Below are positions 1,419-29,255 of a stretch of 32,000 nt of DNA, one piece after another. Source of the DNA: Candidatus Methanophagaceae archaeon (GTDB lineage Archaea; Halobacteriota; Syntropharchaeia; Alkanophagales; Methanospirareceae). The notes under the pieces are model-generated. The model ran no database searches, had not been told where the DNA came from, and saw only the letters and a program-made list of their open reading frames with translations. The stretch is from the NCBI GenBank assembly GCA_003194425.1, contig PQXB01000001.1, positions 760,444-792,443 of the forward strand. The letters run 5' to 3'. Made by a program: the position numbers and the translations under genes. Position 1 is the stretch's first letter. Each line of letters opens with the position of its first letter.

Positions 1419-1454
1419 TTACTCGTGCCTTTACTCGTGCCTTTACTCGTGCCG
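1419..1454. repeat. 12-bp tandem repeat x3 (TTACTCGTGCCT/TTACTCGTGCCT/TTACTCGTGCCG) spanning the FtsX permease stop codon
   Basis: Read directly. On the minus strand it reads CGG CAC GAG TAA | AGG CAC GAG TAA | AGG CAC GAG TAA, followed by AAA ATG, the start of the next gene. Confidence 0.95.
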
Positions 1455-2576
1455 CAGCGCCTCGATCGGCTTCAGCCTCGACGCTCGCCACGCGGGGTAA
1501 AGCCCGCTCAGCACGCTCGTCCCGATTCCGAACGCGACCCCTGCGAAAATATACAAAACGCTGGAGGGGGCGAGCAAATAAGACGCCTCCTGCAAAACCA
1601 AAACATCCACCAAGAACCCCGCGCCAAAGCCCAGAACCGCTCCTGCCACGCCGCCGACCGTGCCGAGAATTAGCGACTCAAACAAAAACATTCTGAGAAT
1701 CCCGCTCCTTGAAGTCCCGATTGCACGCATCACGCCGATTTCCTTCGTCCGCTCAACCGTCGACATCAGCATCACATTCAGAATGCTCACACCCGCGACG
1801 AGGAGCGAAATCGCCCCGATTCCGAGCAGGAAGACCGAAATCGTGCTGAACAACTTTTTTATGCCCTCCACAATCTGCTTCAATTCCATCACCCTTACGA
1901 CCTGCTCCCGCTTGTTCAGGCGGTCTTCAATCTCCCTCCTCACCTCCTCAACCTCCTCTACTTTCTCAACTTTCACAATCACCGAGTTGTAGCCCGACGC
2001 CGACGCCGAAGAGTTAAAAAGCGATTCAAACATCTTCTCCGAGACGATCACAGCGTTGTCAGGATTTATGTCGAACCCAATTCCCCGCTCCTTCAGGATT
2101 CCCACGATTCTCGGCTTCTGACCTCGCACCGCCACTCGCTCGCCCACTCGCAGCTCGTAATTCTCGGCGAGCCTTGACCCAACCAGGCAGTTCAGAGAGC
2201 CGTGCTTGAGAAACTGCCCCTCCTCTTTCTCCACCAACTTCGAAATGTCCTCGCTCCGCATCCCGTAAATCATCACGAGACTTTGCTCGCCGTTTAGAGT
2301 TGCTTTCTCGGTTCGTGAATTTATCGGGATTGCGACGGCTGCTGCTTTGTCTATTTGCTTGAAGTTCTGCTCTGAAATCGGTTCCTCACCGTAGGGAAAG
2401 ACCACGAGCTCGTTCCCGATCATACACAACTGCTCCGACGCGGAGAGTCGGACGCTGTTGCCGAGAATTCCGAGTGCGGTTATCGCGAGCACGCCGATCA
2501 CGATTCCGACGACCGCGAGGACGGACCTGAACTTGTGCCTTGCGAGGTTCCGCTTCGCAAACTCGAAGAAAATCAT
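1443..2576 (-). CDS. FtsX/MacB-type ABC transporter permease (COG0577)
   Basis: 377 aa. It has an N-terminal TM helix (FRSVLAVVGIVIGVLAITALGIL), a large extracytoplasmic domain, then three C-terminal TM helices with the FtsX-like motif TKEIGVMRAIGTSR. Confidence 0.85.
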   Translation of the reverse strand: MIFFEFAKRNLARHKFRSVLAVVGIVIGVLAITALGILGNSVRLSASEQLCMIGNELVVFPYGEEPISEQNFKQIDKAAAVAIPINSRTEKATLNGEQSLVMIYGMRSEDISKLVEKEEGQFLKHGSLNCLVGSRLAENYELRVGERVAVRGQKPRIVGILKERGIGFDINPDNAVIVSEKMFESLFNSSASASGYNSVIVKVEKVEEVEEVRREIEDRLNKREQVVRVMELKQIVEGIKKLFSTISVFLLGIGAISLLVAGVSILNVMLMSTVERTKEIGVMRAIGTSRSGILRMFLFESLILGTVGGVAGAVLGFGAGFLVDVLVLQEASYLLAPSSVLYIFAGVAFGIGTSVLSGLYPAWRASRLKPIEALRHE

Positions 2577-2581
2577 CCGTT

Positions 2582-2621
2582 TTAATCCTTTTAGTTATCT
2601 TATTAATCCTTTTAGTTATCT
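2582..2621. repeat. Tandem duplication, period 21 (TTAATCCTTTTAGTTATCT x2), directly upstream of the FtsX permease start
   Basis: Copies at 2582-2600 and 2603-2621 are identical. A related sequence ATACTTTTAGATCTAGATTTA occurs at 6001-6021, next to the MacB-type ATPase stop. Confidence 0.9.
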
Positions 2622-2640
2622 AGTTTAGAGGAGAGGAAAA

Positions 2641-2865
2641 ATGGCAGAAACAAAAACAAGAATGAAATGGAAATTAACCATAAGCCCAGAGGTCTTTAAT
2701 ACTTTAGTCAAATTGAGAGAGGAGCTCGAAGATGTGATCGAAACGATTGAGATAATGAATGACAGGGAGTTAATGGAAGGGCTGGAGAGGTCCAAGAAGG
2801 ACTTTGAAGAGGGGAGGGTTTACGAATTGAAAAATGTCGGCGACCTCGATGAAATTTGGAAATGA
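2641..2865 (+). CDS. Type II antitoxin (Phd/YefM/RelB-like)
   Basis: 74 aa. The motif IEIMNDRELMEGLERSKKDFEEGRVYEL resembles antitoxin C-terminal regions. Its stop overlaps the ancestral start of the downstream RelE-like gene (ATGA at 2862-2865). GGAGAGG RBS upstream. Confidence 0.6.
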   Translation: MAETKTRMKWKLTISPEVFNTLVKLREELEDVIETIEIMNDRELMEGLERSKKDFEEGRVYELKNVGDLDEIWK

Positions 2866-3123
2866 AGGTAATTTATACAGAAGGTAATTTATACAGAGGA
2901 GTTCAAAAGGGATGTGAGGAAAGTGAAGGACAAGAAGGTTCAAGATAGAATAAGGAAAATGGTCAAGAAGATAAAAGAGAATCCAGGGGTTGGAAAGCCC
3001 TTGAGATACGACCTTTCAGGACTTAGAAGTATTAAACTTCCTCCCTTTAGGAGATTGTATGAAATCAGGGAGGAGTTGATAATTTTGCACAAATTCGAGC
3101 ATAGGAAAGAGGTGTATATTTAA
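2862..3123 (+). pseudogene. RelE/ParE-family toxin, frameshifted near the 5' end by a 16-bp tandem duplication
   Basis: Removing one repeat copy restores MKVIYTEEFKRDVRKVKDKKVQDRIRKMVKKIKENPGVGKPLRYDLSGLRSIKLPPFRRLYEIREELIILHKFEHRKEVYI, a typical RelE/ParE length and pattern. As sequenced, the ATG at 2862 reads 28 codons to a TAG at 2946-2948. The rest survives only as a GTG-initiated ORF at 2914-3123. Confidence 0.65.
2864..2897. repeat. 16-bp tandem duplication (GAAGGTAATTTATACA x2.1) at the antitoxin/toxin junction
   Basis: Read directly. Positions 2864-2879 equal 2880-2895, and the match extends 2 nt further. Confidence 0.95.
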
Positions 3124-3194
3124 GGAATAAATTAAAAAGGAGAAAGAAAGAAGAAACGAAAACAAGAGCAAGAATAAGAGGGGAAGGAAAAGGT

Positions 3195-5648
3195 TTGAAA
3201 CACCTGAAGACGCAGGCAGCAGTTCTAACCGCGGTGCTGGTGCTTTCTTTGTTTGCAGGCACGACTTTAACAGCCGCTTCTGACGGAGAGAAAGGGGAAG
3301 AAACAAAGACAGAGACGGCAATCGCCGAAGGCGCGGACTGGCTCGTAGCGCGTCAAAGCGAGAACGGTGGCTGGACGCCTTTCTCGGTTTCAAAAAATAA
3401 CGCGTTGGCGGTTAGGGCGTTCGTTGCCACCGGGAACACTTCGTCGCCAAAATACGCTCTTCTTCTGAGCAAACTAAAGGCGCTTCAAGCCCCTGACGGC
3501 AGTTGGGACGAGAATGTGAGGGCGACAAGTGAAGCAATCTGGGCGTTGGTTGAGGCTGGGGAGGAGCCGGACTCACCGATTATGCTTAACGCTGTGACGT
3601 GGCTTAAAGACCATGTTGATTTTAGTGACACGACTGAAGGAAGTACAGCGACTGTCTCAATAATTCTTATTGCACTGATAAAAGCAGGCGAGCCAAAAAG
3701 TTCCCAGGTTATTATGGATGGCGTGAATTGGCTGAAGACAAATCAGAATGACGATGGCTACTGGGGTGGTTATCAAGGAGATGTAAGTACGTGGGCTGGT
3801 CACGGAAGCTCCCCAATTATAGCATTATGTTTAGCAGATTCTCCGTCATCATCTGAAGTTCAAAAAGCCGTGAGTTGGTGGGAATTACGCCTCCCTACTG
3901 ATAATTGGCCGGATATACATGGATTAGAGGCATTTATAGCAGCTGGATCAGAATCTAATATTCAAACTGCAATAAGCTACGTATTATCTAATCAACATTC
4001 GGATGGAGGATGGCCCCATTGCTGGGATTGGCCAACTCGAAATGGCGAGACTGCAAAAGCTGTAACAGCATTAACAGATGCTGGATATACAAATGGTGCG
4101 GTAGACAAAGGTATGTCTTGGATTGAAGATCATATAACAGAGGAAGGAGTTTATGTGGGTGAATATGAGCATCCCGGTGTTATTTCATGGTGTAGTTCTG
4201 GACTACTACAGGTAAATACTACAAATGCGAGTTCATCAGTGCAAAAGGCTGTGGATTTACTCAAAAGCATTCAAGGGTCTGGCGGCAGCTGGGCGTGGAC
4301 AATTTATCATTCAGGACATGTGGACATAACGGGCTTGGTGCTTTGGTCGTTAAATAATTATGGACTTCCTTCTTCTTCTCCAATAATTCAGCAGGGAGCA
4401 TCTTTCATAATAAAAGCCCAAAACTCCGACGGTGGTTGGGGAGTTTATCCAACAGGAACAGCAAGCACAGTTAGCAACACAAACTACGCCCTGCTCGGCT
4501 TAATCTCCGCGGGCTACACAACCTCTAACCCAAGCCTCGTCAAAGGACTGGACTACCTCTCGAGAGAAAGCACCGCCGGAAACTGGGGCAACACCTTCGA
4601 GACCGCACTCGCAACAATCATCTTCCAGGAGACAGGCTACAACGAGACCCTGCTCAACCACTCGACCGGCTGGCTCCGGGCGAACCAGAACGAAGACGGG
4701 GGCTGGGGTTCTGCAAAAGGCGAGACCAGCACCACTTCAAGCACTGCACTCGCACTGGTCGCACTGAACCAAACCGGAGAGACAGGACTGAAAATTGCAA
4801 GAGGAGCGGCGTGGCTCGTCGCAGCACAGAACGAAGACGAAGACGGCGGTGGCAGAGGTTGGAGCAACCTGCCCGGAATTCCGTGCAGCAACCCTGGACA
4901 GACCGCGCAGGCAGTTTGGGCACTCTCGGTCGCGAACTACACGCTTGAAATCGAATTGAACTTGACACTGGACAAGGAGACCTACTACCCCGGCGAGACG
5001 GTAAAAATAAATGTCAGCTCGCCCGACGCCGACGAGATTGCAACCCTGAACGGCACGGTAACAGACGCAGAAGGGAATTTCACAAACCTCTCTTTCGACT
5101 CAAATTTCACCGCGAACTACGAACTCACCGCGGACGCAGCTCCGGGGACTTACACCGTAAATGTGGTCGCACGGTCGCAGAACGGCACGGGAACGGCAAC
5201 CGCGAACTTCGATGTCCTGCGTCTGTTTCCGCCGACTGTCTCGGTTGCGACTGACAAGACCGAGTACCGCCCAGGCGAGACGATGAACACAACGATTTGT
5301 CTGGCGAACCCGTCTAACACCTCGCAGCCGGTGGTGTTCCGCTGGTGGCTCTCGATTCCAAAGTTCGACTACTACTCGCTGGGGGTTGCGACCTCGCCGC
5401 TCTCCCTGCCCACAGAGTACGACGAGTGCTTCTCGTTTCCGGTTACTGTTGGTGACTGGGGTGGTGCTGGCTTCGGTGCGTTCTGGTGCGTTGGTTTGTT
5501 CGACCCGGAGACAGACGCGATTATTTGCTACGACACAAGCGGTTGGAATTACACGCCTGCACAGGAGAAGGGAAGAGAAGCGGTAACACCCGCAGAAATC
5601 GCAGATGCGTTAGTGAAAAGAGTGGAAGAGGTAGAGTTCCCGATTTAA
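3195..5648 (+). CDS. Secreted surface protein with about 11 prenyltransferase/squalene-cyclase-like (QW-type) repeats and C-terminal Ig/CARDB-like domains
   Basis: TTG start and signal peptide (LKTQAAVLTAVLVLSLFAGTTLTAA). Repeats follow the pattern xxWLxxxQNxDGGWG (QSENGGWT, QAPDGSWD, QNDDGYWG, QHSDGGWP, QGSGGSWAW, QNSDGGWG, QNEDGGWG, QNEDEDGGGRGWS). Two beta-rich modules follow (DKETYYPGETVKINVSSP, DKTEYRPGETMNTTICL). Many N-x-S/T sequons are present. Confidence 0.7.
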   Translation: MKHLKTQAAVLTAVLVLSLFAGTTLTAASDGEKGEETKTETAIAEGADWLVARQSENGGWTPFSVSKNNALAVRAFVATGNTSSPKYALLLSKLKALQAPDGSWDENVRATSEAIWALVEAGEEPDSPIMLNAVTWLKDHVDFSDTTEGSTATVSIILIALIKAGEPKSSQVIMDGVNWLKTNQNDDGYWGGYQGDVSTWAGHGSSPIIALCLADSPSSSEVQKAVSWWELRLPTDNWPDIHGLEAFIAAGSESNIQTAISYVLSNQHSDGGWPHCWDWPTRNGETAKAVTALTDAGYTNGAVDKGMSWIEDHITEEGVYVGEYEHPGVISWCSSGLLQVNTTNASSSVQKAVDLLKSIQGSGGSWAWTIYHSGHVDITGLVLWSLNNYGLPSSSPIIQQGASFIIKAQNSDGGWGVYPTGTASTVSNTNYALLGLISAGYTTSNPSLVKGLDYLSRESTAGNWGNTFETALATIIFQETGYNETLLNHSTGWLRANQNEDGGWGSAKGETSTTSSTALALVALNQTGETGLKIARGAAWLVAAQNEDEDGGGRGWSNLPGIPCSNPGQTAQAVWALSVANYTLEIELNLTLDKETYYPGETVKINVSSPDADEIATLNGTVTDAEGNFTNLSFDSNFTANYELTADAAPGTYTVNVVARSQNGTGTATANFDVLRLFPPTVSVATDKTEYRPGETMNTTICLANPSNTSQPVVFRWWLSIPKFDYYSLGVATSPLSLPTEYDECFSFPVTVGDWGGAGFGAFWCVGLFDPETDAIICYDTSGWNYTPAQEKGREAVTPAEIADALVKRVEEVEFPI

Positions 5649-5729
5649 TGAATAGATTATGAAAATATAACGCTTGGGGATTTAGAGGTAGGAGAAGAGA
5701 TTGAAATAGAGCCTCATCCAGAGGGTGGA

Positions 5730-5993
5730 ATGCCGGTTTACTGCACTATTTGTGATGTCGAAATGGAGAAGACAAAAATTAATGTGAAGCGCGGGAATAT
5801 TATGCTTCTCGACATAGAGGCTTACAAGTGCCCACAATGTGGAGAAGGAGTTTTAGACATTGACACTGCATCACAGTTGGAGCGTGAGTTTGGATTGCGA
5901 GATCAGGAAAATAGCACGAAATATGAATTGAAATTGTTAAAAGAGGGTGCGAATTATTTGCTGCCTCTTCCGAAAGAGTTTGTTAATAAATGA
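5730..5993 (+). CDS. Small zinc-ribbon protein (YgiT/MqsA-type CxxC...CxxCGE) with a possible AbrB/SpoVT-like C-terminus
   Basis: 87 aa with CTIC...CPQCGEGV. The C-terminal KEGANYLLPLPKEFVNK resembles the swapped-hairpin xxxVxIPKEhxxxL motif. The gene is low in GC. Confidence 0.45.
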   Translation: MPVYCTICDVEMEKTKINVKRGNIMLLDIEAYKCPQCGEGVLDIDTASQLEREFGLRDQENSTKYELKLLKEGANYLLPLPKEFVNK

Positions 5994-6018
5994 AATAAAG
6001 ATACTTTTAGATCTAGAT

Positions 6019-8038: not shown

Positions 8039-8043
8039 TCACA

Positions 8044-8805
8044 TCACACCCCTAACGAACTGGGATTTCTCAACAAAAGGACGAGGATATAAATCGCTAC
8101 AGGAATGGCAACGGTGAGGACTGCGTCCCTCGTCGAGAGGTTCCGTGCGTGCTTCAGCCCGAAGATCCAAATGTTCGCACTCCAAAGCATAAAGAGGATG
8201 CCAACAGCGGAAGAGAGCCGCAGCAGCGGACTTGTCAGCAGCGGTGCGAGCGCTTTTTGAATCTCTGCTGGGTCTGCTACGTTTGTTACTACTGGAATCT
8301 GCGTGGTTGAGACGAAATTGTAGACGAGCACTGCACTTACGAGTCCGCTGAAGATTGTAGGAATGTAGCCGTAGCCCACGAACTCGAGCGTCCGCTTGAA
8401 CTTCCCCTCGCCCTTGAAAAGGCAGGACACGGCGAAGAACAGGGCAGCAGCGACGACCCAAATGACGAATGAACTGACCACTGCACCCACAAAAGCACCT
8501 ACGCCTCCAACCGCCGAAACGACACCCAGAGCCTCTTGCGGAAGCGTTTGCGATTTTCTGAGCATTTCAAATGTTACACCTGCCATCAAAAAAAGAGAGA
8601 TTCCGCCGACTAACCCGCTTGTCAGGACGATGAGCGCCGGTATTTTCAGACTCGGCTCTCTCTCCCCTCTTCCCCATTCTCCTTCTCCGCCTCCTTTTCC
8701 TTCTCCACCTCCTTTTCCTTCTCCGCCTCCTGCTCCTTTTTCTTCCCTCTCCCCTTTCGCCTTCGCTTCAAAAAATCTGTTCGGATTTGTCAAGACTTCC
8801 AACAT
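8044..8805 (-). CDS. Yip1-domain integral membrane protein
   Basis: 253 aa. The N-terminus LTNPNRFFE is followed by about 5 TM helices. A G/E/K insert lies after residue 16. Confidence 0.55.
   Translation of the reverse strand: MLEVLTNPNRFFEAKAKGEREEKGAGGGEGKGGGEGKGGGEGEWGRGEREPSLKIPALIVLTSGLVGGISLFLMAGVTFEMLRKSQTLPQEALGVVSAVGGVGAFVGAVVSSFVIWVVAAALFFAVSCLFKGEGKFKRTLEFVGYGYIPTIFSGLVSAVLVYNFVSTTQIPVVTNVADPAEIQKALAPLLTSPLLRLSSAVGILFMLWSANIWIFGLKHARNLSTRDAVLTVAIPVAIYILVLLLRNPSSLGV
8681..8734. repeat. In-frame 18-bp tandem repeat x3 inside the Yip1 gene (encodes GEGKGG units)
   Basis: CCTTCTCCGCCTCCTTTT / CCTTCTCCACCTCCTTTT / CCTTCTCCGCCTCCTGCT, read directly. Confidence 0.95.
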
Positions 8806-8831
8806 TTTTCCTCTCTTCTACAGACCTCTTT

Positions 8832-9473
8832 TTAAATATTTTTAATTTTTGCGGTTTGCAGTTGTTTCAGCCTCGCACGCATATTTTTCCAGTGGCTGCC
8901 TTTCCAGTAAACCCTGCCACACCGCTCGCAAACCCAGAACTCCCTCTTCCCTTCCCCTTCTCTTTCTCCTCCTTCTTCCCCTTCTCTTTCTCCTCCTTCT
9001 TCTCCTTCTCTGACCCCGACCCTACCCGCAGGCACATAATTTTTTTCCTTGAGCATTGCCTCTTCTTCTTTCCCGCTCCCGACCAGCCTCAGCCTCGCGT
9101 TGCACTCGCTACACCTCGCAGGGACTGGTTCGAGGTTCAGGTGTGAGGTAAGGTCGTGGCGAAGCAACTCCTGCAACTGCTCCATCGCGTTGTCGGTTTT
9201 TATTTGAACGCACTGGACGCCCTTTTTCGTCGCCGCTGCCGCGAGGTTCTTGTCTCGGGTGAGCAGTATTCGTGCCTCGTGCTCCGCCAACGCGGTGAGG
9301 CTTCTGTCCTCTTCTTCTCCCTTCTTCTCCTTCTTCCCCTCCTCCCCCTCCTCCCCCTCCTTTCCTTCTGCTTTCACCTCCGCAGCGTAAACGGTGTCGT
9401 ACCCAAGGACACGAAGCCAAGTGGTAAGTTTTCCCAACATTCTGTCGGTTACGAATTTTTTTTCCGCAGCCAC
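8832..9473 (-). CDS. Mut7-C RNase domain (DUF82, PIN-like plus Zn-ribbon) protein
   Basis: N-terminal FVTDRMLGKLTTWLRVLGYDT and C-terminal CSECNARL...CERCGRVYWKGSHW. Two G/E-rich inserts are present. The start overlaps the coaBC 3' end by 25 nt. Confidence 0.8.
   Translation of the reverse strand: MAAEKKFVTDRMLGKLTTWLRVLGYDTVYAAEVKAEGKEGEEGEEGKKEKKGEEEDRSLTALAEHEARILLTRDKNLAAAATKKGVQCVQIKTDNAMEQLQELLRHDLTSHLNLEPVPARCSECNARLRLVGSGKEEEAMLKEKNYVPAGRVGVREGEEGGEREGEEGGEREGEGKREFWVCERCGRVYWKGSHWKNMRARLKQLQTAKIKNI
8952..9010. repeat. In-frame 24-bp tandem repeat x2.4 inside the Mut7-C gene (encodes [21 protein letters not shown])
   Basis: Positions 8952-8975 equal 8976-8999 exactly. A partial third copy has one mismatch. 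Confidence 0.95.
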
Positions 9474-10757: not shown

Positions 10758-10830
10758 TGGACCGGTCGGGATTTGAACCCGAGGCCTCTCGCACGCCAAG
10801 CGAGTGATCTTCCAACTGATCTACCGGCCC
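10758..10830 (-). tRNA. tRNA-Ala (anticodon GGC)
   Basis: Hand-folded 73-nt cloverleaf. Acceptor GGGCCGG/CCGGTCC with a G3:U70 pair; D arm GATC-AGTTGGAA-GATC. Anticodon arm CTCGC-TTGGCGT-GCGAG; T arm TCGGG-TTCAAAT-CCCGA. CCA is not encoded. Confidence 0.9.
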
Positions 10831-11167: not shown

Positions 11168-11242
11168 TGGGGTCGCTGAGATTTGAACTCAGGTCACGGC
11201 GTCCCGAACGCCGAAGGATCGTCCAAGCTACCCTACAACCCC
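11168..11242 (-). tRNA. tRNA-Pro (anticodon CGG)
   Basis: Acceptor GGGGTTG/CGACCCC, anticodon arm CGGCG-TTCGGGA-CGCCG, T arm CTGAG-TTCAAAT-CTCAG. My hand fold leaves 2 nt at position 26 and a 4-nt variable loop, so the exact fold needs tRNAscan. The position between rpoN and rpoK matches the classical archaeal operon (recollection). Confidence 0.75.
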
Positions 11243-11469: not shown

Positions 11470-11958
11470 TCACCTGTAAGACTTCTGCCTGTGTGCCCTC
11501 GCGCCCTTCGCACCGAACTTCTTTGACTCCTTCTGCCTCGTGTCGTTGACCAGCAAGTTCCTGTCGTACTCAAAGTAGGTCTCCTTAAGTTCCTCGTTTC
11601 CCGTCCACTCCACCAGCCCTCGAGCGATTGCGGTTCGCACTGCCTCTGCCTGTCCCATAAAACCACCTCCTTTCACATTTACATTCACTGAAATTCCTTC
11701 GCCCTCAATGTCAACCGCCGCCCCCTCGGGAAGCTGGGCTGCGACGACCAACGGCTCTGATATTTTCTCTCTCACCACGTCCGGCTCGATTATTTCTAAC
11801 GGCTTCTTGTTTATCCGCACTCCGCCCTTTCCCCCGTCCTCCCTCTTCTGCAGGGTTACTCTCGCAATCGCCGTCTTCCGCTTTCCTACTTGCGTTACTA
11901 CCTTCTTCGGCTTCGCTTTTGCTTTTGACTTCACTTTTGCTGTTGTTTGGGCGACCAT
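11470..11958 (-). CDS. rps9: 30S ribosomal protein S9 (uS9)
   Basis: GKRKTAIARVTL...C-terminal ARAHRQKSYR. K/A-rich N-terminal extension. The gene overlaps the rpl13 end by 28 nt. Confidence 0.92.
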   Translation of the reverse strand: MVAQTTAKVKSKAKAKPKKVVTQVGKRKTAIARVTLQKREDGGKGGVRINKKPLEIIEPDVVREKISEPLVVAAQLPEGAAVDIEGEGISVNVNVKGGGFMGQAEAVRTAIARGLVEWTGNEELKETYFEYDRNLLVNDTRQKESKKFGAKGARAHRQKSYR

Positions 11959-12791: not shown

Positions 12792-12820
12792 CTTTTCGCC
12801 CTCGCCTCGCTTTGTCTTTG

Positions 12821-12848
12821 AAGATTTTAAATACTTCTTTATAAATTG
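12821..12848 (-). promoter_or_regulatory. Candidate TATA boxes for the L18e operon
   Basis: A palindromic TTTATAAA sits at 12838-12845, about 50 nt upstream of the ATG at 12791. An ATTTAAAA (minus strand) sits at about 12824-12831. Both lie in an AT-rich spacer. This is a position-only argument. Confidence 0.35.
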
Positions 12849-12932
12849 TGCTTTGTCTAAAAATTAACAAGTCAGCGTAGTTTTACCTGTCTAATCTAAT
12901 CAAGCATAAACAAACTAAACTTTCTTACCCCA

Positions 12933-12987
12933 CTCATAATCTTCTCTCATAATCAAATCACATAATCTTGCACTCATAATCAAAATC
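12933..12987. repeat. Array of four CTCATAATC-type direct repeats (minus strand GATTATGAG), spacing 13/13/14 bp
   Basis: Repeats at 12933-12941, 12946-12954, 12959-12967 (CACATAATC) and 12973-12981. The array reads as a roughly 27-bp unit duplicated, and that unit is itself an internal duplication. Confidence 0.85.
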
Positions 12988-13194
12988 TGAACAAGGCAGT
13001 TCGAATCTGCGTTTAAACAAGAGAACATGAACTCTGCAACCCACCTCATTTCTAATCCCTGTAGACAAAAATCAAAAAAAAACTTCACGAACCTCTTGAC
13101 CATGCCTTTATAAACTTCCACTCTTTTTTTACCATAAAATTACTTGTTTTATTTTATCCGACAATCCAAACTCATTTCAAAACAATAAGAATAA

Positions 13195-13839
13195 ATGAGC
13201 GAAGACACGGAGAACGGGGAGAGCCTAAAAAGGCAGGCACTGCTGTTTCGGGATTTAGTTGGCGACGAACTCTTTGGGTTTAGCGTAGCACAAAACATCG
13301 CGGCACTCGAGAGAGACAGGTGCAGGTTTGAGCAGTTGGCACAGGCGATTTTGGCGTTCTTCGAGTGCGAACGGTGCTGCAAGTGCTGTAGCGAAATGCC
13401 GATTCATTTGAGCGACGCTGACTTGGAGCGGCTCGGCAAACTCGACGGAGCGGCTCTCTTTGGCAAATTGGACGAGAAAGAGGTGGACAACTACTTGAAG
13501 ACGCCGTGCCCGTATTTGAGTGCGGGGGTGTGTAGCTGTGCGATTTACGAGAGCAGACCCACCTCCTGCAGAATGTTCCCGTTCGTCGTCCTTCGCCCTG
13601 TTCCGACGCTGCAGTTGTGCCCGTTGGGGAAGAAGGTCTTTGAGGAGTTCAAGAGGTTGAGTCGGAAGTACGGTAAAAAAGAGGTGAAGGAGAAGTGGGA
13701 GGAGGGGAGTGAAAAGAGTGAAAGAAGAGGAAGTGGGGGGGAAAAGGCGGTGTACGTCGCACTTCCCCTCAGGGTTTTAGAGAAGTTTTTAAAATATTTA
13801 CAGGCGGAGAAAATGTTAAATGTTAAGGTCAGAAATTAA
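13195..13839 (+). CDS. YkgJ-family (UPF0153/COG0727) cysteine-cluster protein
   Basis: CERCCKCC cluster and CPYLSAGVCSCAIYESRPTSCRMFPF. A K/E/G-rich C-terminal region is present. Confidence 0.7.
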   Translation: MSEDTENGESLKRQALLFRDLVGDELFGFSVAQNIAALERDRCRFEQLAQAILAFFECERCCKCCSEMPIHLSDADLERLGKLDGAALFGKLDEKEVDNYLKTPCPYLSAGVCSCAIYESRPTSCRMFPFVVLRPVPTLQLCPLGKKVFEEFKRLSRKYGKKEVKEKWEEGSEKSERRGSGGEKAVYVALPLRVLEKFLKYLQAEKMLNVKVRN

Positions 13840-13854
13840 GGTTAAGGTCAGAAA
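13822..13854. repeat. 19-bp tandem duplication (GTTAAGGTCAGAAA core) spanning the stop of the YkgJ-like gene and the cobT RBS
   Basis: Positions 13822-13835 equal 13841-13854. A nested AATGTTA x2 lies at 13812-13825. A second in-frame TAA lies at 13843-13845. Confidence 0.9.
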
Positions 13855-14961: not shown

Positions 14962-14964
14962 GAA

Positions 14965-17615: not shown

Positions 17616-18233
17616 CTATTCCTCTTCCTCTCTCTTTAATTTCACCACTTTAAAGCCTGGTACAGGTGCGTCTCCCAACACCTCCAAAATCGTGCACCTC
17701 TCCCCCTTTTTTAGACCCAACGGGTTGCACAATTCAAATAACTCGTACTCCCCTTCTTCTCCTCCTCCTTCCCCCTCTCCTCCTCCTTCCCCCTCTCCTC
17801 CTCTCTCACCTTCCGCCTCTCCCTCCCTCTCTCCTTCTTCCGCTTTACCGCTGCCACGCAGAGCAGTCGGCTCAAAAATAATCTTGGAACCCTTCAAAGC
17901 ACGCTTCGCCTCTACCAACGCTTTTACCGCCGGCTCCCTTACCTCCACAACTCGCACACCGTCCTCGTGAACCTCGCAGTCGTGCTTTATTTCTTCTCTC
18001 ACCTTCTCAACCAAGTACCTCCTGCCAACCTCAAGGTTCGTGCAAGAGTTTTTCAACTTACACTGCCTGCACTTCTCAGCAGCCCCTAAAAACACGAACT
18101 CCTCGCCCACCTTCGCTAACTTGCTGCCAACTAAGGTCACGATTTTTTCGTCTTCGTCTTTCTCTTTTCCGTTCTCTTTTTTTCCCTTCTCAGCTTTCGC
18201 GTCCCCTCTTAGCCTGTTCCACAGTCCGTGCAT
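17616..18233 (-). CDS. UPF0179-family protein with a large G/E insert
   Basis: IVTLVGSKLAKVGEEFVFLGAAEKCRQCKLKNSCTNLEVGRRYLVEKVRE..CEVHEDGVRVVEV matches my recollection of UPF0179. A GTG at 18140 would give the family-typical N-terminus MTLVG. The 40-aa insert is GKAEEGEREGEAEGERGGEGEGGGEGEGGGEEGE. Confidence 0.65.
   Translation of the reverse strand: MHGLWNRLRGDAKAEKGKKENGKEKDEDEKIVTLVGSKLAKVGEEFVFLGAAEKCRQCKLKNSCTNLEVGRRYLVEKVREEIKHDCEVHEDGVRVVEVREPAVKALVEAKRALKGSKIIFEPTALRGSGKAEEGEREGEAEGERGGEGEGGGEGEGGGEEGEYELFELCNPLGLKKGERCTILEVLGDAPVPGFKVVKLKREEEE
17761..17796. repeat. In-frame 18-bp tandem repeat x2 (CCTCCTCCTTCCCCCTCT) inside the UPF0179 gene
   Basis: Positions 17761-17778 equal 17779-17796 exactly. 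Degenerate copies continue on both sides. Confidence 0.95.
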
Positions 18234-18278: not shown

Positions 18279-18307
18279 GTTTGTTAGTCAAGTAGTTGGT
18301 CAGTCAA
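18279..18307. repeat. Imperfect duplication spanning the egsA stop (minus strand TTGACTGACCAAC / TTGACTAACAAAC, period 16)
   Basis: 11 of 13 positions are identical. One copy contains the TGA and the other a TAA. Confidence 0.6.
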
Positions 18308-20308: not shown

Positions 20309-21060
20309 TCGTATATTTCCGCCTCAAAATCCTCCACGCTGTAACCGAACACGAACTCCTCCTCTTCTCCTTCTCGGCGGTGCCGCTCTCTCAACACCTC
20401 CCGAGCAAGCAGCCAGTAGACGGTGGCAAGTGCTTTTCTGCCGTGGTTGTTCGTAGGAATGACGAAGTCCACGTTGGTGGTTGAGTTGTTGGTGTCGCAG
20501 AGAGCCAGGATTGGAATGCCCGTGCTCACGCCCTCGAGCAACGCTTGCGCATCCGTCATCGGGTCGGTCACGACCAAAATCGCAGGCTCACGGAAATATT
20601 CCGAGCCGGGGTTTGTTAAAGTGCCGGGGATAAATCGCTCGACTATTGACGCTGCTCCCGTCGCCTCGGCGAACCTGCTCACGGGGTGGTGTCCGTACTC
20701 CCGCGCCGAGACGACCAAGACCGAAGAAGGCTCATAATTCGCCAAGAACCTTGCAGCAATCAACAGCCTTGCATCAATTTTTTCTACATCCAGCAAATAC
20801 AGCCCGTCCGGTCTTGTTTGGTAAATAAATCGCTTCATATCGCCGGTTTTTTGCTGCGTTCCGATGTGGACGCCGTTTAAGAAGTAAGTCTCACTCGGCA
20901 GTAGCACCGTCTTTTCGGTTCCTGCTCTTGCTCCTACTCCTCTTTCTCCCCCTACTCCTCTTTCTTTCTTTTCTGCTCTTTCTCTCTCCTCTCCACCTTC
21001 GTCCTCCTTCTCCCTCTCCTCTCCTTCCTCTTCTGCCATCATTTCTTTATCTTCGTTCAT
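20305..21060 (-). CDS. rps2: 30S ribosomal protein S2 (uS2) with an acidic/G-rich N-terminal extension
   Basis: GVHIGTQQKTGDMKRFIYQTRPDGLYLLDVEKIDARL...AILVVTDP. About 45 aa of low-complexity N-terminus makes the start uncertain. Confidence 0.88.
   Translation of the reverse strand: MNEDKEMMAEEEGEEREKEDEGGEERERAEKKERGVGGERGVGARAGTEKTVLLPSETYFLNGVHIGTQQKTGDMKRFIYQTRPDGLYLLDVEKIDARLLIAARFLANYEPSSVLVVSAREYGHHPVSRFAEATGAASIVERFIPGTLTNPGSEYFREPAILVVTDPMTDAQALLEGVSTGIPILALCDTNNSTTNVDFVIPTNNHGRKALATVYWLLAREVLRERHRREGEEEEFVFGYSVEDFEAEIYE
20929..20964. repeat. In-frame 18-bp tandem repeat x2 in the rps2 N-terminal extension (encodes ERGVGG ERGVGA)
   Basis: TGCTCCTACTCCTCTTTC / TCCCCCTACTCCTCTTTC, read directly. 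Confidence 0.9.
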
Positions 21061-21071
21061 TTTTCAATTTT

Positions 21072-23917
<2,846 letters not shown>

Positions 23918-24110: not shown

Positions 24111-24142
24111 CAAAAACAAAGTTGTAACGGGAAGAAAGGAAA

Positions 24143-25951
24143 ATGACGATAAAGGAGGAGTTGCCGCCGGGGGAAGTCTCGCCAGAGGAGATTCAGGAGG
24201 CGAATGTAGAGGTTTCTGCGGCGTTTTCTGAAATGTTCAAGCCTGTTCTCGGTCCGTTTGGATCGAAGATTTTGGTGTCGCAAGGAGCAACGAAGGTGGA
24301 GGCTGCAGACCTCGTCTCGAGCAACGCGCTCAGCCTGGTGAAGGAATTGAAATACCAGCACCCCACCGCGGAGATTTTGATAAACGCGGGTTTAACGCAG
24401 GGAGAGCGGGTGGGGGACGGCGTTGCTACAGTGATGATTTTGACCGGCGAGTTAGTGCGGCGGGGTTTTGAGCTGAAGAACGCGGGTGTGCATCAGAACA
24501 CGGTGGTGAAGGGCTACGAGCAGTCGCTGGCGTTCGTGAAAACGGTTTTGGACGAGACAGCGACTGCAGTTGCTGTGCGAGGGGTAGGAGGAGAAGGCGA
24601 CGAGATTTTGAGGTGCGTGGCGAGGACGGCGTTAAAGAGCGGTGCGTTCTGCGAAGAAGACGAGTTGGCGGAGGTAGTGGTAGAGAGCGTAAAACGAGTA
24701 AGCGAGGGCGAGGAGGGTGCCGTCGGTAGCGGTAAAATAGATGTGGACGATGTGGCGATCGAGACGAAGAGCGGGAGCAGAGTGAGAGAGACGAGATTTG
24801 TAGAGGGCGTTGTCGTGGACCGGGCAGTTCTGGACGCTCTTCCTACGGAAATTGAGAATGCGAGGGTGGCACTCCTCGACTTCTCGCTCGAGCACAAGGA
24901 GCCGAAGGTGAAGGGGCGGAAGGAACTCCCGACCGGGACAGGTGCAAGAGAACGGAGTAAGGCTGGAGAGACGCTCGGAGCACTTGATTTTCATGTGAAA
25001 TTCTCAAAGCCTGCACACTTCCGCGAGTTCCGCGAGACGAGGGCGAGGCTCTTCGACGAGATCGTAGACCCTGTTGTGAAGTCGGGTGCAAACGTGGTCT
25101 GCTGTCGCTGGGGTGTGGACGACGAGGCACTGCGTAAGTTCCGCGACGCCGGAATAATGCTGATAAAACGCGTGAAATTGACGGATTTACGGCGGCTGGA
25201 ACGGTCGACAGGCGGTAAAATCGTGAAAGATGTCAGCGACTTGAGCGCTGAGAAATTCGGGTTTGCAGGAAGGGTAGTGCAGCGAGAAATCGGCGGAAGT
25301 GGCGAGAAGGATAAATTCGTCTTCTTTGAGGACTGCAAGCACAAGCGGTCGGCGACGATAATTTTGCGTGGCAGCTCGCTCCGAGTTTTAGAAGGGCTCG
25401 TTGGCGAAGTAAAGAGCGCCCTGCACTCCGTTGCACAGCTCTTTAAGGACAACCGCGTGGTGCCGGGGGGAGGTGCTGTTGAGACCGAGTGCGCGGTTCG
25501 GTTGAGGAAGTTTGCGAGGACAGTAGCGGGCAAGGAGCAGTTGGCGATTGAGGCGTTCGCCGACGCTCTTGAGTCCGTTCCGCGGGCGTTAGCGAAGAAC
25601 TGCGGGCTTGACCAAATTGACACTCTCGCAAGGCTGAGGGCAGAGCACTTCAAGGGCAACAAGAACGCAGGCGTCTCGGGAGCAGGGGGCGAGAAGTGCG
25701 TAAGGCAGGACGTCGTGGCGGAGGCGGGAATTTTAGACCCCCTCCGAGTGAAACAGCAGGCGTTCGTCTCTGCTACCGAAGCGGCTGTAGGAATGATGAA
25801 AATTGACGACCTGCACATCGCGAAGAGTGCAGTTAGGGAAGAGGCAGAGGACATTGAGACGCGAATTGTGGGTAGAACGCGGGAATTGATCGAGACCGAA
25901 AGGCGACCTGAGGAGTTTAAATATGTTAAGGGCGGGCGGGTGAAGTACTAA
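24143..25951 (+). CDS. Divergent group II chaperonin (thermosome/CCT family) paralogue
   Basis: Family blocks QHPTAEILINAGLTQGERVGDGVATVMILTGEL, TIILRGSS, VPGGGAVE and ILDPLRVKQQAFVSATEAAVGMMKIDDL. At 602 aa it is longer than a typical thermosome subunit and lacks a GGM tail. Confidence 0.75.
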   Translation: MTIKEELPPGEVSPEEIQEANVEVSAAFSEMFKPVLGPFGSKILVSQGATKVEAADLVSSNALSLVKELKYQHPTAEILINAGLTQGERVGDGVATVMILTGELVRRGFELKNAGVHQNTVVKGYEQSLAFVKTVLDETATAVAVRGVGGEGDEILRCVARTALKSGAFCEEDELAEVVVESVKRVSEGEEGAVGSGKIDVDDVAIETKSGSRVRETRFVEGVVVDRAVLDALPTEIENARVALLDFSLEHKEPKVKGRKELPTGTGARERSKAGETLGALDFHVKFSKPAHFREFRETRARLFDEIVDPVVKSGANVVCCRWGVDDEALRKFRDAGIMLIKRVKLTDLRRLERSTGGKIVKDVSDLSAEKFGFAGRVVQREIGGSGEKDKFVFFEDCKHKRSATIILRGSSLRVLEGLVGEVKSALHSVAQLFKDNRVVPGGGAVETECAVRLRKFARTVAGKEQLAIEAFADALESVPRALAKNCGLDQIDTLARLRAEHFKGNKNAGVSGAGGEKCVRQDVVAEAGILDPLRVKQQAFVSATEAAVGMMKIDDLHIAKSAVREEAEDIETRIVGRTRELIETERRPEEFKYVKGGRVKY

Positions 25952-25971
25952 AACTAAAACCTTCAAAACCT
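25948..25971. repeat. Stop-codon microrepeats filling the convergent chaperonin/hemD spacer (CTAAAA x2; minus strand AGGTTTTGA/AGGTTTTAG)
   Basis: The plus strand reads TAC TAA AAC TAA. The minus strand reads AGG TTT TGA AGG TTT TAG TTT TAG. Confidence 0.85.
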
Positions 25972-26799
25972 TCTCTTCAATGCCTCCAGAACGCCCTCAA
26001 AAGTGCTTCGCCCCGCAACCAAATCCACCCGCACACCTTCCTCTGAAATGCTCTCGGCGGTCAAGTCCCCAATCGCAACAACCTTCGCCCGCTCCAAAAC
26101 CGCCAAGACCTCCCTTCTCAACCCCTCCTCCAACCGCTCTGCAAGCCCAAAAAATGTCTTGAAGGTTAGCGAACTCGTGAAGACGACAAAGTCCGGGTTG
26201 TAGGCTACGAGCGCCGAAAATCGCTCCTTCTCCTCTCCTCCCTCCCCCCAGTCCTTCACTGCCACTTTGTACACCGAAATGTCGCGCACGAAAGCACCCC
26301 TTCCGCGCAGGAACTCCAAAATCTCCCGCCCGCCCGCCGAACTTCGCAAAAAAACAATTTTCTTGCCACCCACCTCAACACCGCCTCGTTCCTCAATCAG
26401 CCGCATTAGCCCTCTCGCACTGTACTCCTCGGGGGGCATAAAATCCACCCGCACTCCCCGCCGCTCAAGTTCCGCCCTCGTGACCGGACCAATTGCCCAG
26501 ACCTCGACACCGCCGTCCAAAAGCCTGCCTTTCAAGTCAAATTTACCTTCGCAGAGGCTAAACGCTTTCTTTACGCCGTTCAAACTCGTGAAAACGACTG
26601 CGTCCACTCCCACTCCCTTTCCACCCTCAAAATCTCCCTTTCCGCCCTCAAAAGCCCCCTTCACCTCCTTCAACGCCTCCTGCCGCTCTACCAGCTCAAA
26701 CACAGGAAACCCGAAGAAGTCAAAGCCGTGCCTCTCTGCCTCCTCTTTCGACCGCTCAAGCACGCTCTCGGGCCGAAAAGCCGCTACCCTCTTTCTCAC
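25963..26799 (-). CDS. hemD: Uroporphyrinogen-III synthase
   Basis: 278 aa, GTG start. Two-lobed HEM4 pattern with VVFTSLNGVKKAF and DFVVFTSSLTFKTFF. Insert GAFEGGKGDFEGGKGVG. Confidence 0.78.
   Translation of the reverse strand: MRKRVAAFRPESVLERSKEEAERHGFDFFGFPVFELVERQEALKEVKGAFEGGKGDFEGGKGVGVDAVVFTSLNGVKKAFSLCEGKFDLKGRLLDGGVEVWAIGPVTRAELERRGVRVDFMPPEEYSARGLMRLIEERGGVEVGGKKIVFLRSSAGGREILEFLRGRGAFVRDISVYKVAVKDWGEGGEEKERFSALVAYNPDFVVFTSSLTFKTFFGLAERLEEGLRREVLAVLERAKVVAIGDLTAESISEEGVRVDLVAGRSTFEGVLEALKRRF
26614..26655. repeat. In-frame 21-bp tandem repeat x2 inside hemD (encodes FEGGKGD FEGGKGV)
   Basis: CTCCCTTTCCACCCTCAAAAT / CTCCCTTTCCGCCCTCAAAAG. Confidence 0.9.
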
Positions 26800-26802
26800 A
26801 GC

Positions 26803-26826
26803 AAAAAAAGAAAAAAAGAAAAAGAA
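26803..26826 (-). terminator. Oligo-T tract (minus strand) downstream of hsp20
   Basis: The minus strand reads TTCTTTTTCTTTTTTTCTTTTTTTGC within 45 nt of the hsp20 stop. Archaeal termination typically uses oligo-T. The tract also lies just upstream of the hemD GTG, so its role is ambiguous. Confidence 0.35.
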
Positions 26827-26846
26827 CGAGGAGAAATTAAATTGTT

Positions 26847-27353: not shown

Positions 27354-27380
27354 TTCTCTTTTCTCCTTTCCTTTTTATTG

Positions 27381-27428
27381 ATTTTCAATTTATTTCAATT
27401 TAATATACTATTTTAAATATTAAATAAA
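27381..27428. promoter_or_regulatory. AT-rich divergent promoter region between hsp20 and atwA, with TATA-like boxes and a 10-bp tandem repeat
   Basis: TTTCAATTTA x2 at 27383-27402. TATATTAAAT (minus strand) sits about 50 nt upstream of the hsp20 ATG. TTTTAAATATTAAATAAA lies at 27411-27428. Confidence 0.35.
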
Positions 27429-27552
27429 CATTTCCTCCCGCTACGCTAACGAAAATTTCGAAAAGTTTTTAAATGCGGTTTTTTTTCTAAAAACAGGGTA
27501 AAAGAGGAAGAGAAGGGGTGAAGGAAGAGGAAAAAGAAAGAAGGGGCGAAGG

Positions 27553-27630
27553 AAGAGGAAAGAGGAAAAAAATGGATGGAGTGGGGGAAACAAGAGGAAA
27601 GAGGAAAAAAATGGATGGAGAGGGGGAGAC
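27553..27630. repeat. 39-bp tandem duplication x2 containing the purine-rich RBS and ATG of atwA
   Basis: AAGAGGAAAGAGGAAAAAAATGGATGGAG(T/A)GGGGGA(A/G)AC. Copies at 27553-27591 and 27592-27630 have 2 mismatches. Confidence 0.95.
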
Positions 27631-29212
27631 ATTTGTGGAAATTCGGAATGTTAGTAAGGCGTTTGAGGGTAAAGTGGTCTTAAAGGATGTGAGCTTGAAG
27701 GTAAAGGAGAAGGAGCCGTTGGGCTTGCTCGGGAAGAGCGGTTCAGGGAAGTCTGTCCTGCTCCGAATGCTTCGCGGCACTGACGAGTACGCACCTGACA
27801 GTGGCGAGATAATTTTCAGGCTCGCGTACTGCCCTAGGTGTAGTTGGCTGGAGGGACCGAGCAAGGTAGGGGAGAAGTGTCACAAGTGCGGTGCGGAGTT
27901 CGAGTTTAGGGAAGTGAATTATTGGAAGGACCAGAAAATGAAGCGGCTGCTGAAGAGTGCGATCGCAATTATGCTGCAGCGCAGTTTCGCGCTCTACAGC
28001 GACGAGGGCGTGATTTGGAATGTTTTAGAGGCGTTGGAGCGAGCGAAATATCCGAAGAGCAAGCAGCTGAAAAAAGTCTATGAAATTCTGGAGTCTGTGA
28101 AAATGCTACACCGCGTAAATATGCCAGACACGAGGGATTTGAGCGGTGGCGAGAAACAGCGAATGGTTCTGGCACGGCAGTTGGCGTTGGCGCCGGTTCT
28201 GCTCCTTGCTGACGAGCCGACGGGAACTTTGGACCACGAGACTGCGAAGGTGGTGCACCGCGCACTAATTGACACCACACGAGGCGGGACGACTTTCCTC
28301 GTTACTTCGCACTGGCCGTACGTGATTCGCGAGTTGGCGGAGAAGGTGGCGTGGCTTGATAAGGGCGAAATCGTCGAGTACGGCGAGGCGGACAAAGTAG
28401 TAACCGAGTTTGAGAAGGAGGTGGGAGAGATTGAGCGAGAGGACTACAAGAAGTTCGGCGACCCTAAGATACGAATTGAGGGGCTGAAGAAGTACTACCT
28501 CTCGGCCTCGCGGGGCGTTGTAAAGGCGGTGGACGATGTCTCGCTCACGATAAATGAGAACGAGATTTTTGGGGTCGTGGGGCACAGCGGTGCTGGGAAG
28601 ACGAGTTTGATGAAGATTGTAAGTCATTTAGAGTCGGGAACAGGCGGTTCCGCGTGGGTGCGGATCGGAGACAGGTGGTACGAGTCGTCAAAAGCGGACG
28701 CAGGGACTTTCGTGAAAGACGGCGTAATTCAGGGCGGCACGACCGAGTGGAGATCGCATTTCGTCGGCGTGCTGCACCAGGAATACACGCTGATTCCGAA
28801 ACTCACGACCTGGGAGAACCTCACGCACGGGATCGGTCTGAATATGCCCGAGGACTTGGCGAAGATGAAAGTGAAGTTCGTGCTTGAAGGCGTGGGGTTC
28901 AGCGACGAGGAGATAAAGGAGATTCTGCCGAAGACGCACCAAGAACTGAGCGTTGGCGAGAAGCAGCGGATTCTCATCGCACAGCTGCTGATGAAAGAGC
29001 CTAATATCGCGGTGCTCGACGAGCCGACGGGGACGATGGACCCGGTAACAAAGAAATATGTCGGCGAGACGATAATTAAGGCGCGAGAGAATTTGGGCAT
29101 TACTTTCGTGATCGTCACGCACGACCTTGACTTCGCGGAGAAGGTCTGCGACCGAGTAGCAAAGATGGAGAACGGCAAAGTAACTGAGATTGAGGATTTG
29201 AGAGTAGGGTAA
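27572..29212 (+). CDS. atwA: Methyl-coenzyme M reductase system component A2 (double ABC ATPase)
   Basis: Two ABC cassettes: GKSGSGKS...LSGGEKQRMVLARQL...LLLADEPTGTLD and GHSGAGKT...LSVGEKQRILIAQLL...AVLDEPTGTMD. A Zn-ribbon insert CPRCSW...CHKCG lies in cassette 1, typical of A2. The start is ambiguous: GTG 27518, ATG 27572, or ATG 27611. ATG 27611 is the duplicated copy and gives MDGEGETFVEIRNVSKAF. Confidence 0.85.
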   Translation: MDGVGETRGKRKKMDGEGETFVEIRNVSKAFEGKVVLKDVSLKVKEKEPLGLLGKSGSGKSVLLRMLRGTDEYAPDSGEIIFRLAYCPRCSWLEGPSKVGEKCHKCGAEFEFREVNYWKDQKMKRLLKSAIAIMLQRSFALYSDEGVIWNVLEALERAKYPKSKQLKKVYEILESVKMLHRVNMPDTRDLSGGEKQRMVLARQLALAPVLLLADEPTGTLDHETAKVVHRALIDTTRGGTTFLVTSHWPYVIRELAEKVAWLDKGEIVEYGEADKVVTEFEKEVGEIEREDYKKFGDPKIRIEGLKKYYLSASRGVVKAVDDVSLTINENEIFGVVGHSGAGKTSLMKIVSHLESGTGGSAWVRIGDRWYESSKADAGTFVKDGVIQGGTTEWRSHFVGVLHQEYTLIPKLTTWENLTHGIGLNMPEDLAKMKVKFVLEGVGFSDEEIKEILPKTHQELSVGEKQRILIAQLLMKEPNIAVLDEPTGTMDPVTKKYVGETIIKARENLGITFVIVTHDLDFAEKVCDRVAKMENGKVTEIEDLRVG

Positions 29213-29255
29213 GATTTGAGAGAAGGGTAAGGGGAGAAGATTTGGAGTAGGGTAA
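29195..29255. repeat. Three copies of the atwA 3' end including its TAA (GATTTGAGAGTAGGGTAA / GATTTGAGAGAAGGGTAA / GATTTGGAGTAGGGTAA)
   Basis: Copies at 29195-29212, 29213-29230 and 29239-29255, read directly. Confidence 0.92.

Follow-up and report, generated by a model that had tools for sequence, protein, structure and literature searches.

The stretch of DNA analysed here (32,000 nt; contig PQXB01000001.1, positions 760,444 to 792,443), referred to as the window, is gene-dense with approximately 33 protein genes and two tRNA genes, and has a GC content of 53% and purine-rich coding strands. We report that it carries short tandem duplications within genes, in spacers and across stop codons, and that these vary between strains of the same species. 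The source of the window is a thermophilic Guaymas-type ANME-1 (anaerobic methanotrophic archaea; Methanophagales) archaeon, and Guaymas-type ANME-1 metagenome-assembled genomes (MAGs) with exact window proteins are listed as 'Ca. Methanophagaceae archaeon' (PXF51538.1), 'ANME-1 cluster archaeon ex4572_4' and 'Ca. Methanospirareceae'. The best PheS identity to GTDB representative genomes in a genome contig scan was ≤75% at the amino acid (aa) level.

An initial annotation of the window had named its genes, and these names were confirmed for the FtsX-type permease, the ABC ATPase, the YkgJ-like CxxCxxCC protein, CobT, NifU, HemD and the Cpn60/TCP-1 chaperonin, as well as for AtwA (TIGR03269) and PheS (Pfam tRNA-synt_2d on the supplied gene calls, together with alignment); Mmp3 was likewise identified (TIGR03268). 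The name EgsA is provisional, its matches being to the Fe-ADH family only.

Repeat calling, strain sequences and sample

Tandem arrays were called with Tandem Repeats Finder (TRF) at one uniform threshold; exact-run and X-drop finders overlooked imperfect arrays. Coverage was throughout calculated from arrays with a TRF score ≥30 and a period ≥6, and for the shuffle comparison and the tally of periods we used a score ≥40 and a period ≥6 with arrays merged. Same-species strains were obtained via exact-protein look-ups (the look-up of the Mmp3 protein gave nothing); the relatives found by the PheS scan (≤75% aa identity) are too distant for studying indel polymorphism. Statistics for the window and its flanks are based on manual annotation or supplied gene calls. 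A crude caller based on open reading frames (ORFs), which mis-calls several genes, was the basis of the rough cross-taxon baselines alone. The strain alignment of 2572-6000, a variable island with replaced sequence, was left out of the event tallies save for the ParE and 6-bp events. In total the sample consists of the window and 27.8 kb of same-species flanks that had not been seen in the initial annotation, i.e. ~60 kb from one species.

Duplications at the gene ends

The initial annotation had listed seven loci, in the order given below, at which a short tandem duplication was thought to span the stop codon of a gene.

1418-1453 (initially 1419-1454), minus strand: stop repeat of the FtsX-type permease gene, 12 bp, TTTACTCGTGCC x3.0, 100% identical
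15429-15452, minus strand: terminal repeat of pheS, 12 bp x2, GCGCGAGTGCGA/GCGCGAGTGTGA, 11/12 match
13822-13859, plus strand: YkgJ-like/cobT repeat, period 19, 14 exact bases followed by TTAAG vs ATGAG
18279-18307, minus strand: egsA repeat, 13-mers with 11/13 match, period 16, TTGACTRAC core, over the TGA (18300-18302)
25946-25973, no strand: convergent chaperonin-hemD spacer of 11 nt (loci 5 and 6) with nested duplications, CTAAAA x2 and AAAACCTTC x2
29195-29265 (initially 29195-29255), plus strand: atwA stop repeat, three GATTTGAGAGTAGGGTAA copies, each with TAA, period 18 and then ~26

Direct reading placed all seven loci within 2 nt of the coordinates first given, and the in-frame extra stops that had been noted (FtsX, hemD, chaperonin, the second atwA copy and 13843-13845) are correct. 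Six of the seven span a stop codon; the seventh, pheS, does not. Four loci (FtsX, YkgJ/cobT, hemD and atwA) are strong on the window sequence alone, and the YkgJ, egsA and chaperonin loci (3, 4 and 5) are under the TRF ≥30 threshold.

The FtsX unit is GGCACGAGTAAA, and the minus strand reads CAC GAG TAA three times (RHE followed by a stop). With the FtsX stop at 1443-1445, the array occupies the 27-nt spacer ahead of the ABC ATPase ATG (1415). Three copies are present in the window and in strains L026, L041 and L043, and two in L039 and L057-L060.

The PheS protein ends RARV RARV, with CGA in copy 1 where copy 2 has the TGA stop. The pheS repeat is hence a terminal in-frame protein extension, and in ANME-1 relatives PheS ends ARIFR or ERVFR. 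NifU and pheS are convergent with a 52-bp overlap (15429-15480), and the NifU tail, ending HTRARTRALRSQSMSG and a stop, reads the pheS repeat on the plus strand.

The YkgJ/cobT repeat spans the YkgJ stop (13837-13839) as well as the cobT ribosome binding site (RBS) and ATG (13855). Copy 1 lacks the ATG (AAAATGAG to AAATTAAG), and a 7-bp x2.3 repeat (13811-13826) lies directly upstream. The spacing is the same across all strains and the duplication is therefore fixed. We favour an origin in which an ancestral ATGA overlap of stop and start was duplicated as part of a 19-bp unit, after which two substitutions in copy 1 would have removed the spurious ATG and changed TGA to TAA.

At egsA the repeat is weak when the window is taken by itself; in L031 and L032, a 16-nt insertion adds a third copy (tandem identity 0.94). 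The same applies to the chaperonin repeat at 25948-25959 (CTAAAA x2; stop at 25949-25951), where L031 and L034 have a perfect 15-bp duplication, AAGTACTAAAACTAA, spanning the chaperonin stop. The hemD repeat (25956-25973) is a perfect 9-bp duplication, AAAACCTTC x2.0, over the TGA (25963-25965). All strains but the window and L035 have an extra 12-bp unit across the hemD stop, and depending on the strain the spacer between the two genes is 11, 23 or 38 nt long.

Among five strains, the atwA stop (29210-29212) has seen at least four independent events: a single copy in L031, a different 12-bp x2 repeat in L032, a different 19-bp x2 repeat in L034, and the 18/26-nt triple in the window.

Further stop-spanning cases were present beyond those initially listed, namely LonC/S2, L13/S9 and a cobT allele of other strains.

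21059-21076, minus strand: Lon_C-domain gene/S2 repeat, 8 bp x2.2 (TGAAAAAT), over the stop (21072-21074) and the start of the ribosomal protein S2 gene (21060)
11911-11945, minus strand: L13/S9 repeat, 18 bp x1.9, over the L13 stop (11931-11933) and in frame in the Lys/Ala-rich N-terminus of S9

In the five strains L031, L032, L049, L050 and L053 a perfect 28-bp duplication at the cobT stop is combined with a TGA to GGA change, giving a CobT of 376 aa vs 368 aa otherwise. The GGA without the duplication would fuse cobT to NifU in frame (14951-14964); the duplication moves the frame to a TAG and restores the NifU start context. In the flanks, we noted a perfect 17-bp x2 repeat over a TAATG stop/start overlap (L031, 20874-20907), 8 bp x3.1 over a TGA (L041, 5130-5153) and 10 bp x3.6 over a stop/start junction (L041, 7721-7756). 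The YkgJ, pheS (L031 and L032 included) and LonC/S2 repeats do not vary among the strains seen and are fixed.

Arrays within genes, at starts and in spacers

The remaining arrays of the window that are discussed below are the following.

2864-2897, plus strand: ParE-family toxin repeat, perfect 16-bp duplication (x2.1) at codon 8; the frameshift makes the gene a pseudogene
414-434, minus strand: ABC ATPase tail repeat, 10 bp x2.1, frame-shifting, 18 nt upstream of the stop, with only the C-terminal tail altered
27553-27631, plus strand: atwA start repeat, 39 bp x2 (95%), over the RBS and start
2582-2621, no strand: FtsX upstream repeat, perfect 21 bp x1.9, intergenic, 6 nt upstream of the FtsX start, in a region of strain-variable length
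8680-9011, minus strand: Yip1/Mut7-C arrays, in-frame 18 bp x2.9 (Yip1 N-terminus) and 24 bp x2.5 (Mut7-C protein), giving G/E/K-rich inserts
17758-17803, minus strand: UPF0179 array, in-frame 18 bp x2.6, GEGEGGGE repeat; L032 lacks the 18-bp copy
30608-30674, minus strand: Mmp3 array, in-frame 12 bp x5.6, EGSG/EGSR repeat; strains differ by 24 and 36 bp
31084-31139, no strand: Mmp3-thyX spacer array, 19 bp x2.9, between divergent genes, adjoined by an 11-nt strain length difference

The 16-bp ParE duplication is private to the window and missing from four other strains; deleting one copy gives back the intact 81-aa ParE, which other strains retain. Independently, a 23-bp duplication inactivates the toxin in L046. 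The gene belongs to an antitoxin/ParE toxin pair (2641-3123), in which the toxin frame is lost after seven codons. The Yip1 and Mut7-C arrays are hypervariable by strain, the length of the Mut7-C protein ranging between 206 and 222 aa. For atwA, the TIGR03269 match starts at residue 40 of the long ORF. Mmp3 (29310-30977) is convergent to atwA; its NCBIfam match (TIGR03268) begins at residue 123 and no Pfam match was obtained.

Excess over chance and recurrence in independent assemblies

With a score ≥40, 31 arrays were present in the window compared to 0.5 in dinucleotide shuffles and 8.0 (maximum 12) in 60-nt local composition shuffles; for a score ≥60 the corresponding numbers were 15, 0.03 and 2.0. 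More than 20 contigs of the same species, which stem from independently sampled and assembled data sets (ENA MEGAHIT and SPAdes, NCBI MAGs, JGI and Logan), are 97.6-100% identical to the window, and loci 1-6 are reproduced at 99.98-100% identity in the Logan contigs SRR6664617 and SRR6664622.

Strain variation, indel spectrum and microhomology

The initial annotation had suggested looking for copy-number polymorphism at these loci, and it is present among the assembled strains: two vs three copies at FtsX and at egsA, three alleles of the hemD spacer, and several variants at atwA. Over 17.9 kb, the window and L031 differ by 107 mismatches, 33 gap openings and 171 gapped bases, and in other strain pairs there are 0.2-0.35 gap openings per mismatch; the typical bacterial ratio is ~0.05. 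The number of indel events is ~0.3 per substitution, and indels account for a larger number of differing bases than substitutions do.

In a hand tally of the strain alignments, ~17 of 20 indel events ≥3 nt are tandem copies of the adjacent sequence (identity ≥0.9). The long alleles are head-to-tail duplications relative to single-copy alleles, with a tandem identity of 0.92-1.00, e.g. ParE (16 bp), cobT (28 bp), the chaperonin gene (15 bp), hemD (12 bp) and events of 9-30 bp in coding sequences (CDS). Clean events leading from one copy to two number 12, with microhomology arms of 2, 3, 0, 9, 2, 7, 0, 4, 10, 11, 2 and 2 nt; microhomology of at least 2 nt is accordingly seen in 10/12 events vs ~7% expected (p=2e-10), and outside low-complexity tracts the arms are 2-3 nt in 5/7 events. 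Moreover, two-copy loci expand to, or collapse from, multi-copy states, as observed for FtsX, egsA, the hemD spacer and the 12-bp array of Mmp3.

Periods and positions of the arrays

Among arrays with a score ≥40, the period is divisible by three in 17/19 located in CDS (p=6e-7) vs 4/9 intergenic ones (Fisher p=0.02). In CDS this rule is broken twice, by the ParE pseudogene and by the array located 18 nt before the ABC ATPase stop. Likewise, polymorphic indels inside CDS are all multiples of three (net of alignment splitting) save the 16- and 23-bp ParE events and the 28-bp cobT-stop event, and they are found mostly in purine-rich tracts coding for G/E/K/R repeats, which leads to strain-dependent protein lengths. 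Frame-breaking events are confined to gene ends, across stops, and to the dispensable toxin ParE, in agreement with the initial suggestion that frame-breaking periods are tolerated once the first stop has been read.

The fraction of each class of sequence covered by arrays is as follows.

Window: intergenic 23%, CDS 5.1%, stops 6/33, starts 2/33 (TRF ≥30; the 6/33 counts the atwA stop via the TRF row 29195-29231, and the merged set gives 5/33)
Flanks, 27.8 kb: intergenic 18%, CDS 6.3%, stops 4/27, starts 3/26
Pooled: intergenic 21%, CDS 5.7%, stops 10/60 (16.7%), starts 5/59 (8.5%)

Pooled coverage of stops is similar to that of intergenic DNA (p=0.53) and higher than that of CDS (p=0.002), and starts are covered less often than intergenic DNA (p=0.016). 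When boundary arrays are left out the intergenic coverage is ~18% by our own arithmetic, with the conclusion unchanged. The initial annotation regarded duplications over stop codons as a possible genomic signature and stated that a lack of enrichment relative to intergenic DNA would speak against it; in ~60 kb the stops are not enriched (10/60 vs 21%), and this proposal is abandoned. Stops behave as unconstrained DNA, and there is no stop-specific signature or new stop-related mechanism.

Interpretation

We consider microhomology-mediated tandem duplication (MTD) combined with purifying selection to be the explanation of the arrays, with a probability of roughly 0.85. This agrees with the simplest reading offered initially, i.e. 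a high input of short duplications filtered by selection, which is backed by the strain variation, the in-frame periods in CDS and the arbitrary periods in intergenic DNA. Mutations that change length would be dominated by MTD, or replication slippage, acting on segments of 6-40 bp, and with two copies in place slipped-strand mispairing would add or remove copies. Purifying selection would then set survival: a unit inside a gene would be kept only when it is in frame and lies in a tolerant region, such regions being mostly purine-rich and coding for Gly/Glu/Lys/Arg. A unit that contains the stop should be neutral at any length, copy 1 retaining the whole ORF with its stop and the last copy retaining the native context of the downstream gene, including the operon RBS and ATG. 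Such units would consequently accumulate like intergenic duplications, building up at the density of other unconstrained DNA, with extra in-frame stops as by-products; no change in initiation is expected when the last copy recreates the downstream start context. As judged from the aligned strains, replication slippage is a plausible mechanism, and a raised rate, rather than retention alone, may operate in this lineage.

Junction duplications also appear to create intergenic spacers de novo, e.g. at FtsX, LonC/S2 and the TAATG of L031, where ~0-4 nt would have become 11-27 nt, and this may occur when a duplication separates a stop and a start that overlap, as in TAATG and ATGA. It is possible, albeit doubtful, that the lineage has an abnormally high MTD rate of its own and that duplication outweighs point mutation as the source of spacers, G/E/K-rich inserts and gene inactivations such as that of ParE. 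A raised rate might be traced to an altered replication or Okazaki-fragment-maturation toolkit.

Several points weigh against MTD plus selection as a full account. A geometric model predicts that stops are covered about half as often as intergenic DNA (~10%), and the observed 16.7% is a nominal 1.6-fold excess (hand-estimated p ~0.09), which could be due to promoter constraint, GA-rich local hotspots or a real mild hotspot. The repeated events at the atwA stop suggest local hotspots, and the tract after this stop is GA-rich and rich in microhomologies. The array load is increased just 3-8-fold, and some GC-rich bacterial loci (L016 and L017) come near it. Finally, insertion vs deletion was judged from comparisons within the species, and the sample is ~60 kb from a single species.

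Of the alternatives, the one that survives best is that the repeats are copy-variable functional modules, contingency-like, which tune stop-to-start spacing and translational coupling or add termination signals. The repeats do sit right on the operon junctions FtsX-ABC ATPase, YkgJ-cobT and LonC-S2 and on the TAATG of L031, with spacers that go from ~3 nt to 15-27 nt, and each hemD unit brings a TTTT run. However, the last copy always restores what originally preceded the downstream start, similar repeats occur between convergent genes and in plain spacers, and the units share no common motif and show no visible association with a gene class; we therefore find this improbable. A general terminator role was rejected, T-runs being present in the hemD units only.

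Even less probable, in our view, is the alternative raised in the initial annotation that the duplications are retained as fail-safe in-frame stops catching read-through ribosomes. The FtsX, hemD, chaperonin, atwA and YkgJ repeats each supply in-frame stops, and an in-frame stop within four codons downstream is present in 13/32 genes vs 6/32 in each other frame (Fisher p=0.028), but this excess is gone when the five duplication-derived stops are subtracted (8/32 vs 12/64, p=0.59). Nor is there any in-frame bias among the stop-spanning periods (6/13 in frame, p=0.24 vs one third; the out-of-frame periods are 8, 13, 16, 19, 19, 26 and 28). Copy number is free to vary and is not conserved (a single atwA copy in L031 and other units in L032 and L034; two or three FtsX copies), and stop-free intergenic DNA has an equal array density. 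A survey of bacteria reports that additional stop codons are not under selection (PMC6764699).

That the repeats stem from errors of assembly or sequencing, or match by chance in sequence of low complexity and purine skew, is effectively refuted: the egsA and chaperonin loci are indeed weak in the window by itself and local-composition shuffles still yield eight arrays, but the 31 observed exceed the shuffle maximum of 12, arrays and alleles recur across more than 10 samples in assemblies by MEGAHIT and SPAdes and in those of JGI and Logan, and the strain differences are exact unit insertions.

Taken together, the data show in a natural population the joint effect of short tandem duplication and selection on a compact archaeal genome. 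Neutral duplications at junctions and stops can make or extend spacers and separate overlapping genes, in-frame ones seed low-complexity inserts, and frame-breaking ones kill dispensable genes (ParE twice, independently). On the practical side, the loci are usable as variable number tandem repeat (VNTR) markers for strain typing of uncultured ANME-1. The arrays also break short-read assemblies and shift the gene lengths and the start and stop calls in MAGs, e.g. cobT (368 vs 376 aa), Mut7-C (206-222 aa) and atwA (546 vs 564 aa).

Other features of the window

A bacterial-type NAD-dependent DNA ligase, LigA (21779-23917; Nlig-Ia, DNA_ligase_aden, OB, HHH and BRCT), is encoded in this archaeon. 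No LigA homologue was present in those stretches of related ANME-1 loci that were fetched, a result that is uninformative on a possible link between LigA and the duplication load.

At 12875-13027 (junction region 12792-13194) 153 bp are unique to the window, including a 13-bp x3.7 repeat at 12933-12981. In all other strains Cas4 precedes L18e and PCNA precedes YkgJ, and both Logan contigs stop at ~13124-13126; either this strain has undergone a rearrangement here or the source assembly contains a chimeric join.

The variable island at 3479-6014 encodes an 817-aa secreted protein, in which prenyltransferase/squalene-cyclase-like repeats are combined with an A2M_BRD domain, as well as an 87-aa zinc-ribbon-like ORF; the island is missing from L039 and L043 and replaced in L041. 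The flavin-dependent thymidylate synthase ThyX (Pfam Thy1; 31249-31947) is divergent from Mmp3, and in L031 there is a 1357-nt insertion after thyX.

The genes for tRNA-Ala(GGC) and tRNA-Pro(CGG) are located at 10758-10830 and 11168-11242, amid rpoN and rpoK, and a 12-nt C-rich strain-variable repeat adjoins the 5' end of tRNA-Ala. The tRNA-Pro gene was detected by ARAGORN and not by Rfam at the gathering threshold.

Comparison with other loci and known systems

The array density of the window is 0.97 per kb, and that of other fetched loci is mostly 0.1-0.6 per kb; a locus of the thermophilic ANME-1c 'Ca. Methanoxibalbensis ujae' reaches 1.33 per kb. Based on the crude gene caller, coverage in the comparison sets is as follows.

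Bacterial control loci, 141 kb: CDS 1.9%, non-coding 2.7%
Lower-GC ANME-1 relatives, 113 kb: CDS 1.5%, non-coding 4.3%

The array load in this species is thus roughly 3-8-fold above that of control loci. Searching the literature on ANME-1 together with tandem duplication, low complexity, slippage or indels gave nothing specific. The process as such is already known, and its elevated intensity in an uncultured archaeal lineage is mildly interesting.

MTD was reportedly first described in Schizosaccharomyces pombe. It has since been reported to be universal in bacteria, archaea, fungi and viruses, with sparse archaeal data (bioRxiv 10.64898/2026.02.28.708716). The likeness to our loci lies in the head-to-tail copies of short single-copy segments with microhomology of a few bases, the later arrays, the variability between isolates and the coding constraint. 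The same report (bioRxiv 10.64898/2026.02.28.708716) contains no mention of frameshifts, of stop codons or of intergenic regions. By prokaryotic standards the load found here is unusually high, and the arrays show an explicit positional filter: stops are covered like intergenic DNA, starts are depleted and CDS arrays are in frame.

Classical contingency loci, located in ORFs or promoters, switch expression on and off. Our loci resemble these and other VNTR loci subject to slipped-strand mispairing in that whole-unit copy changes separate close strains (FtsX, egsA and the hemD spacer). They differ in that the variable units are placed after the stop or are in frame with no evident switch, and the ParE hits are one-off inactivations. 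In the strain alignments no toggling of frame or promoter by copy number was seen, the units in ORFs being multiples of three and the start context being restored.

With respect to fail-safe stops, as treated in the bacterial survey (PMC6764699), the extra stops here differ in being duplication by-products, with no in-frame period bias and a copy number that is not conserved. Finally, tandem-repeat indels rival substitutions as a source of diversity in Plasmodium falciparum, which has strain-variable low-complexity protein inserts (PMC5052046). In contrast to this AT-rich eukaryote, the organism studied here is an archaeon with a GC content of 53%, coding strands rich in purines and inserts of G/E/K/R, measured over ~60 kb.

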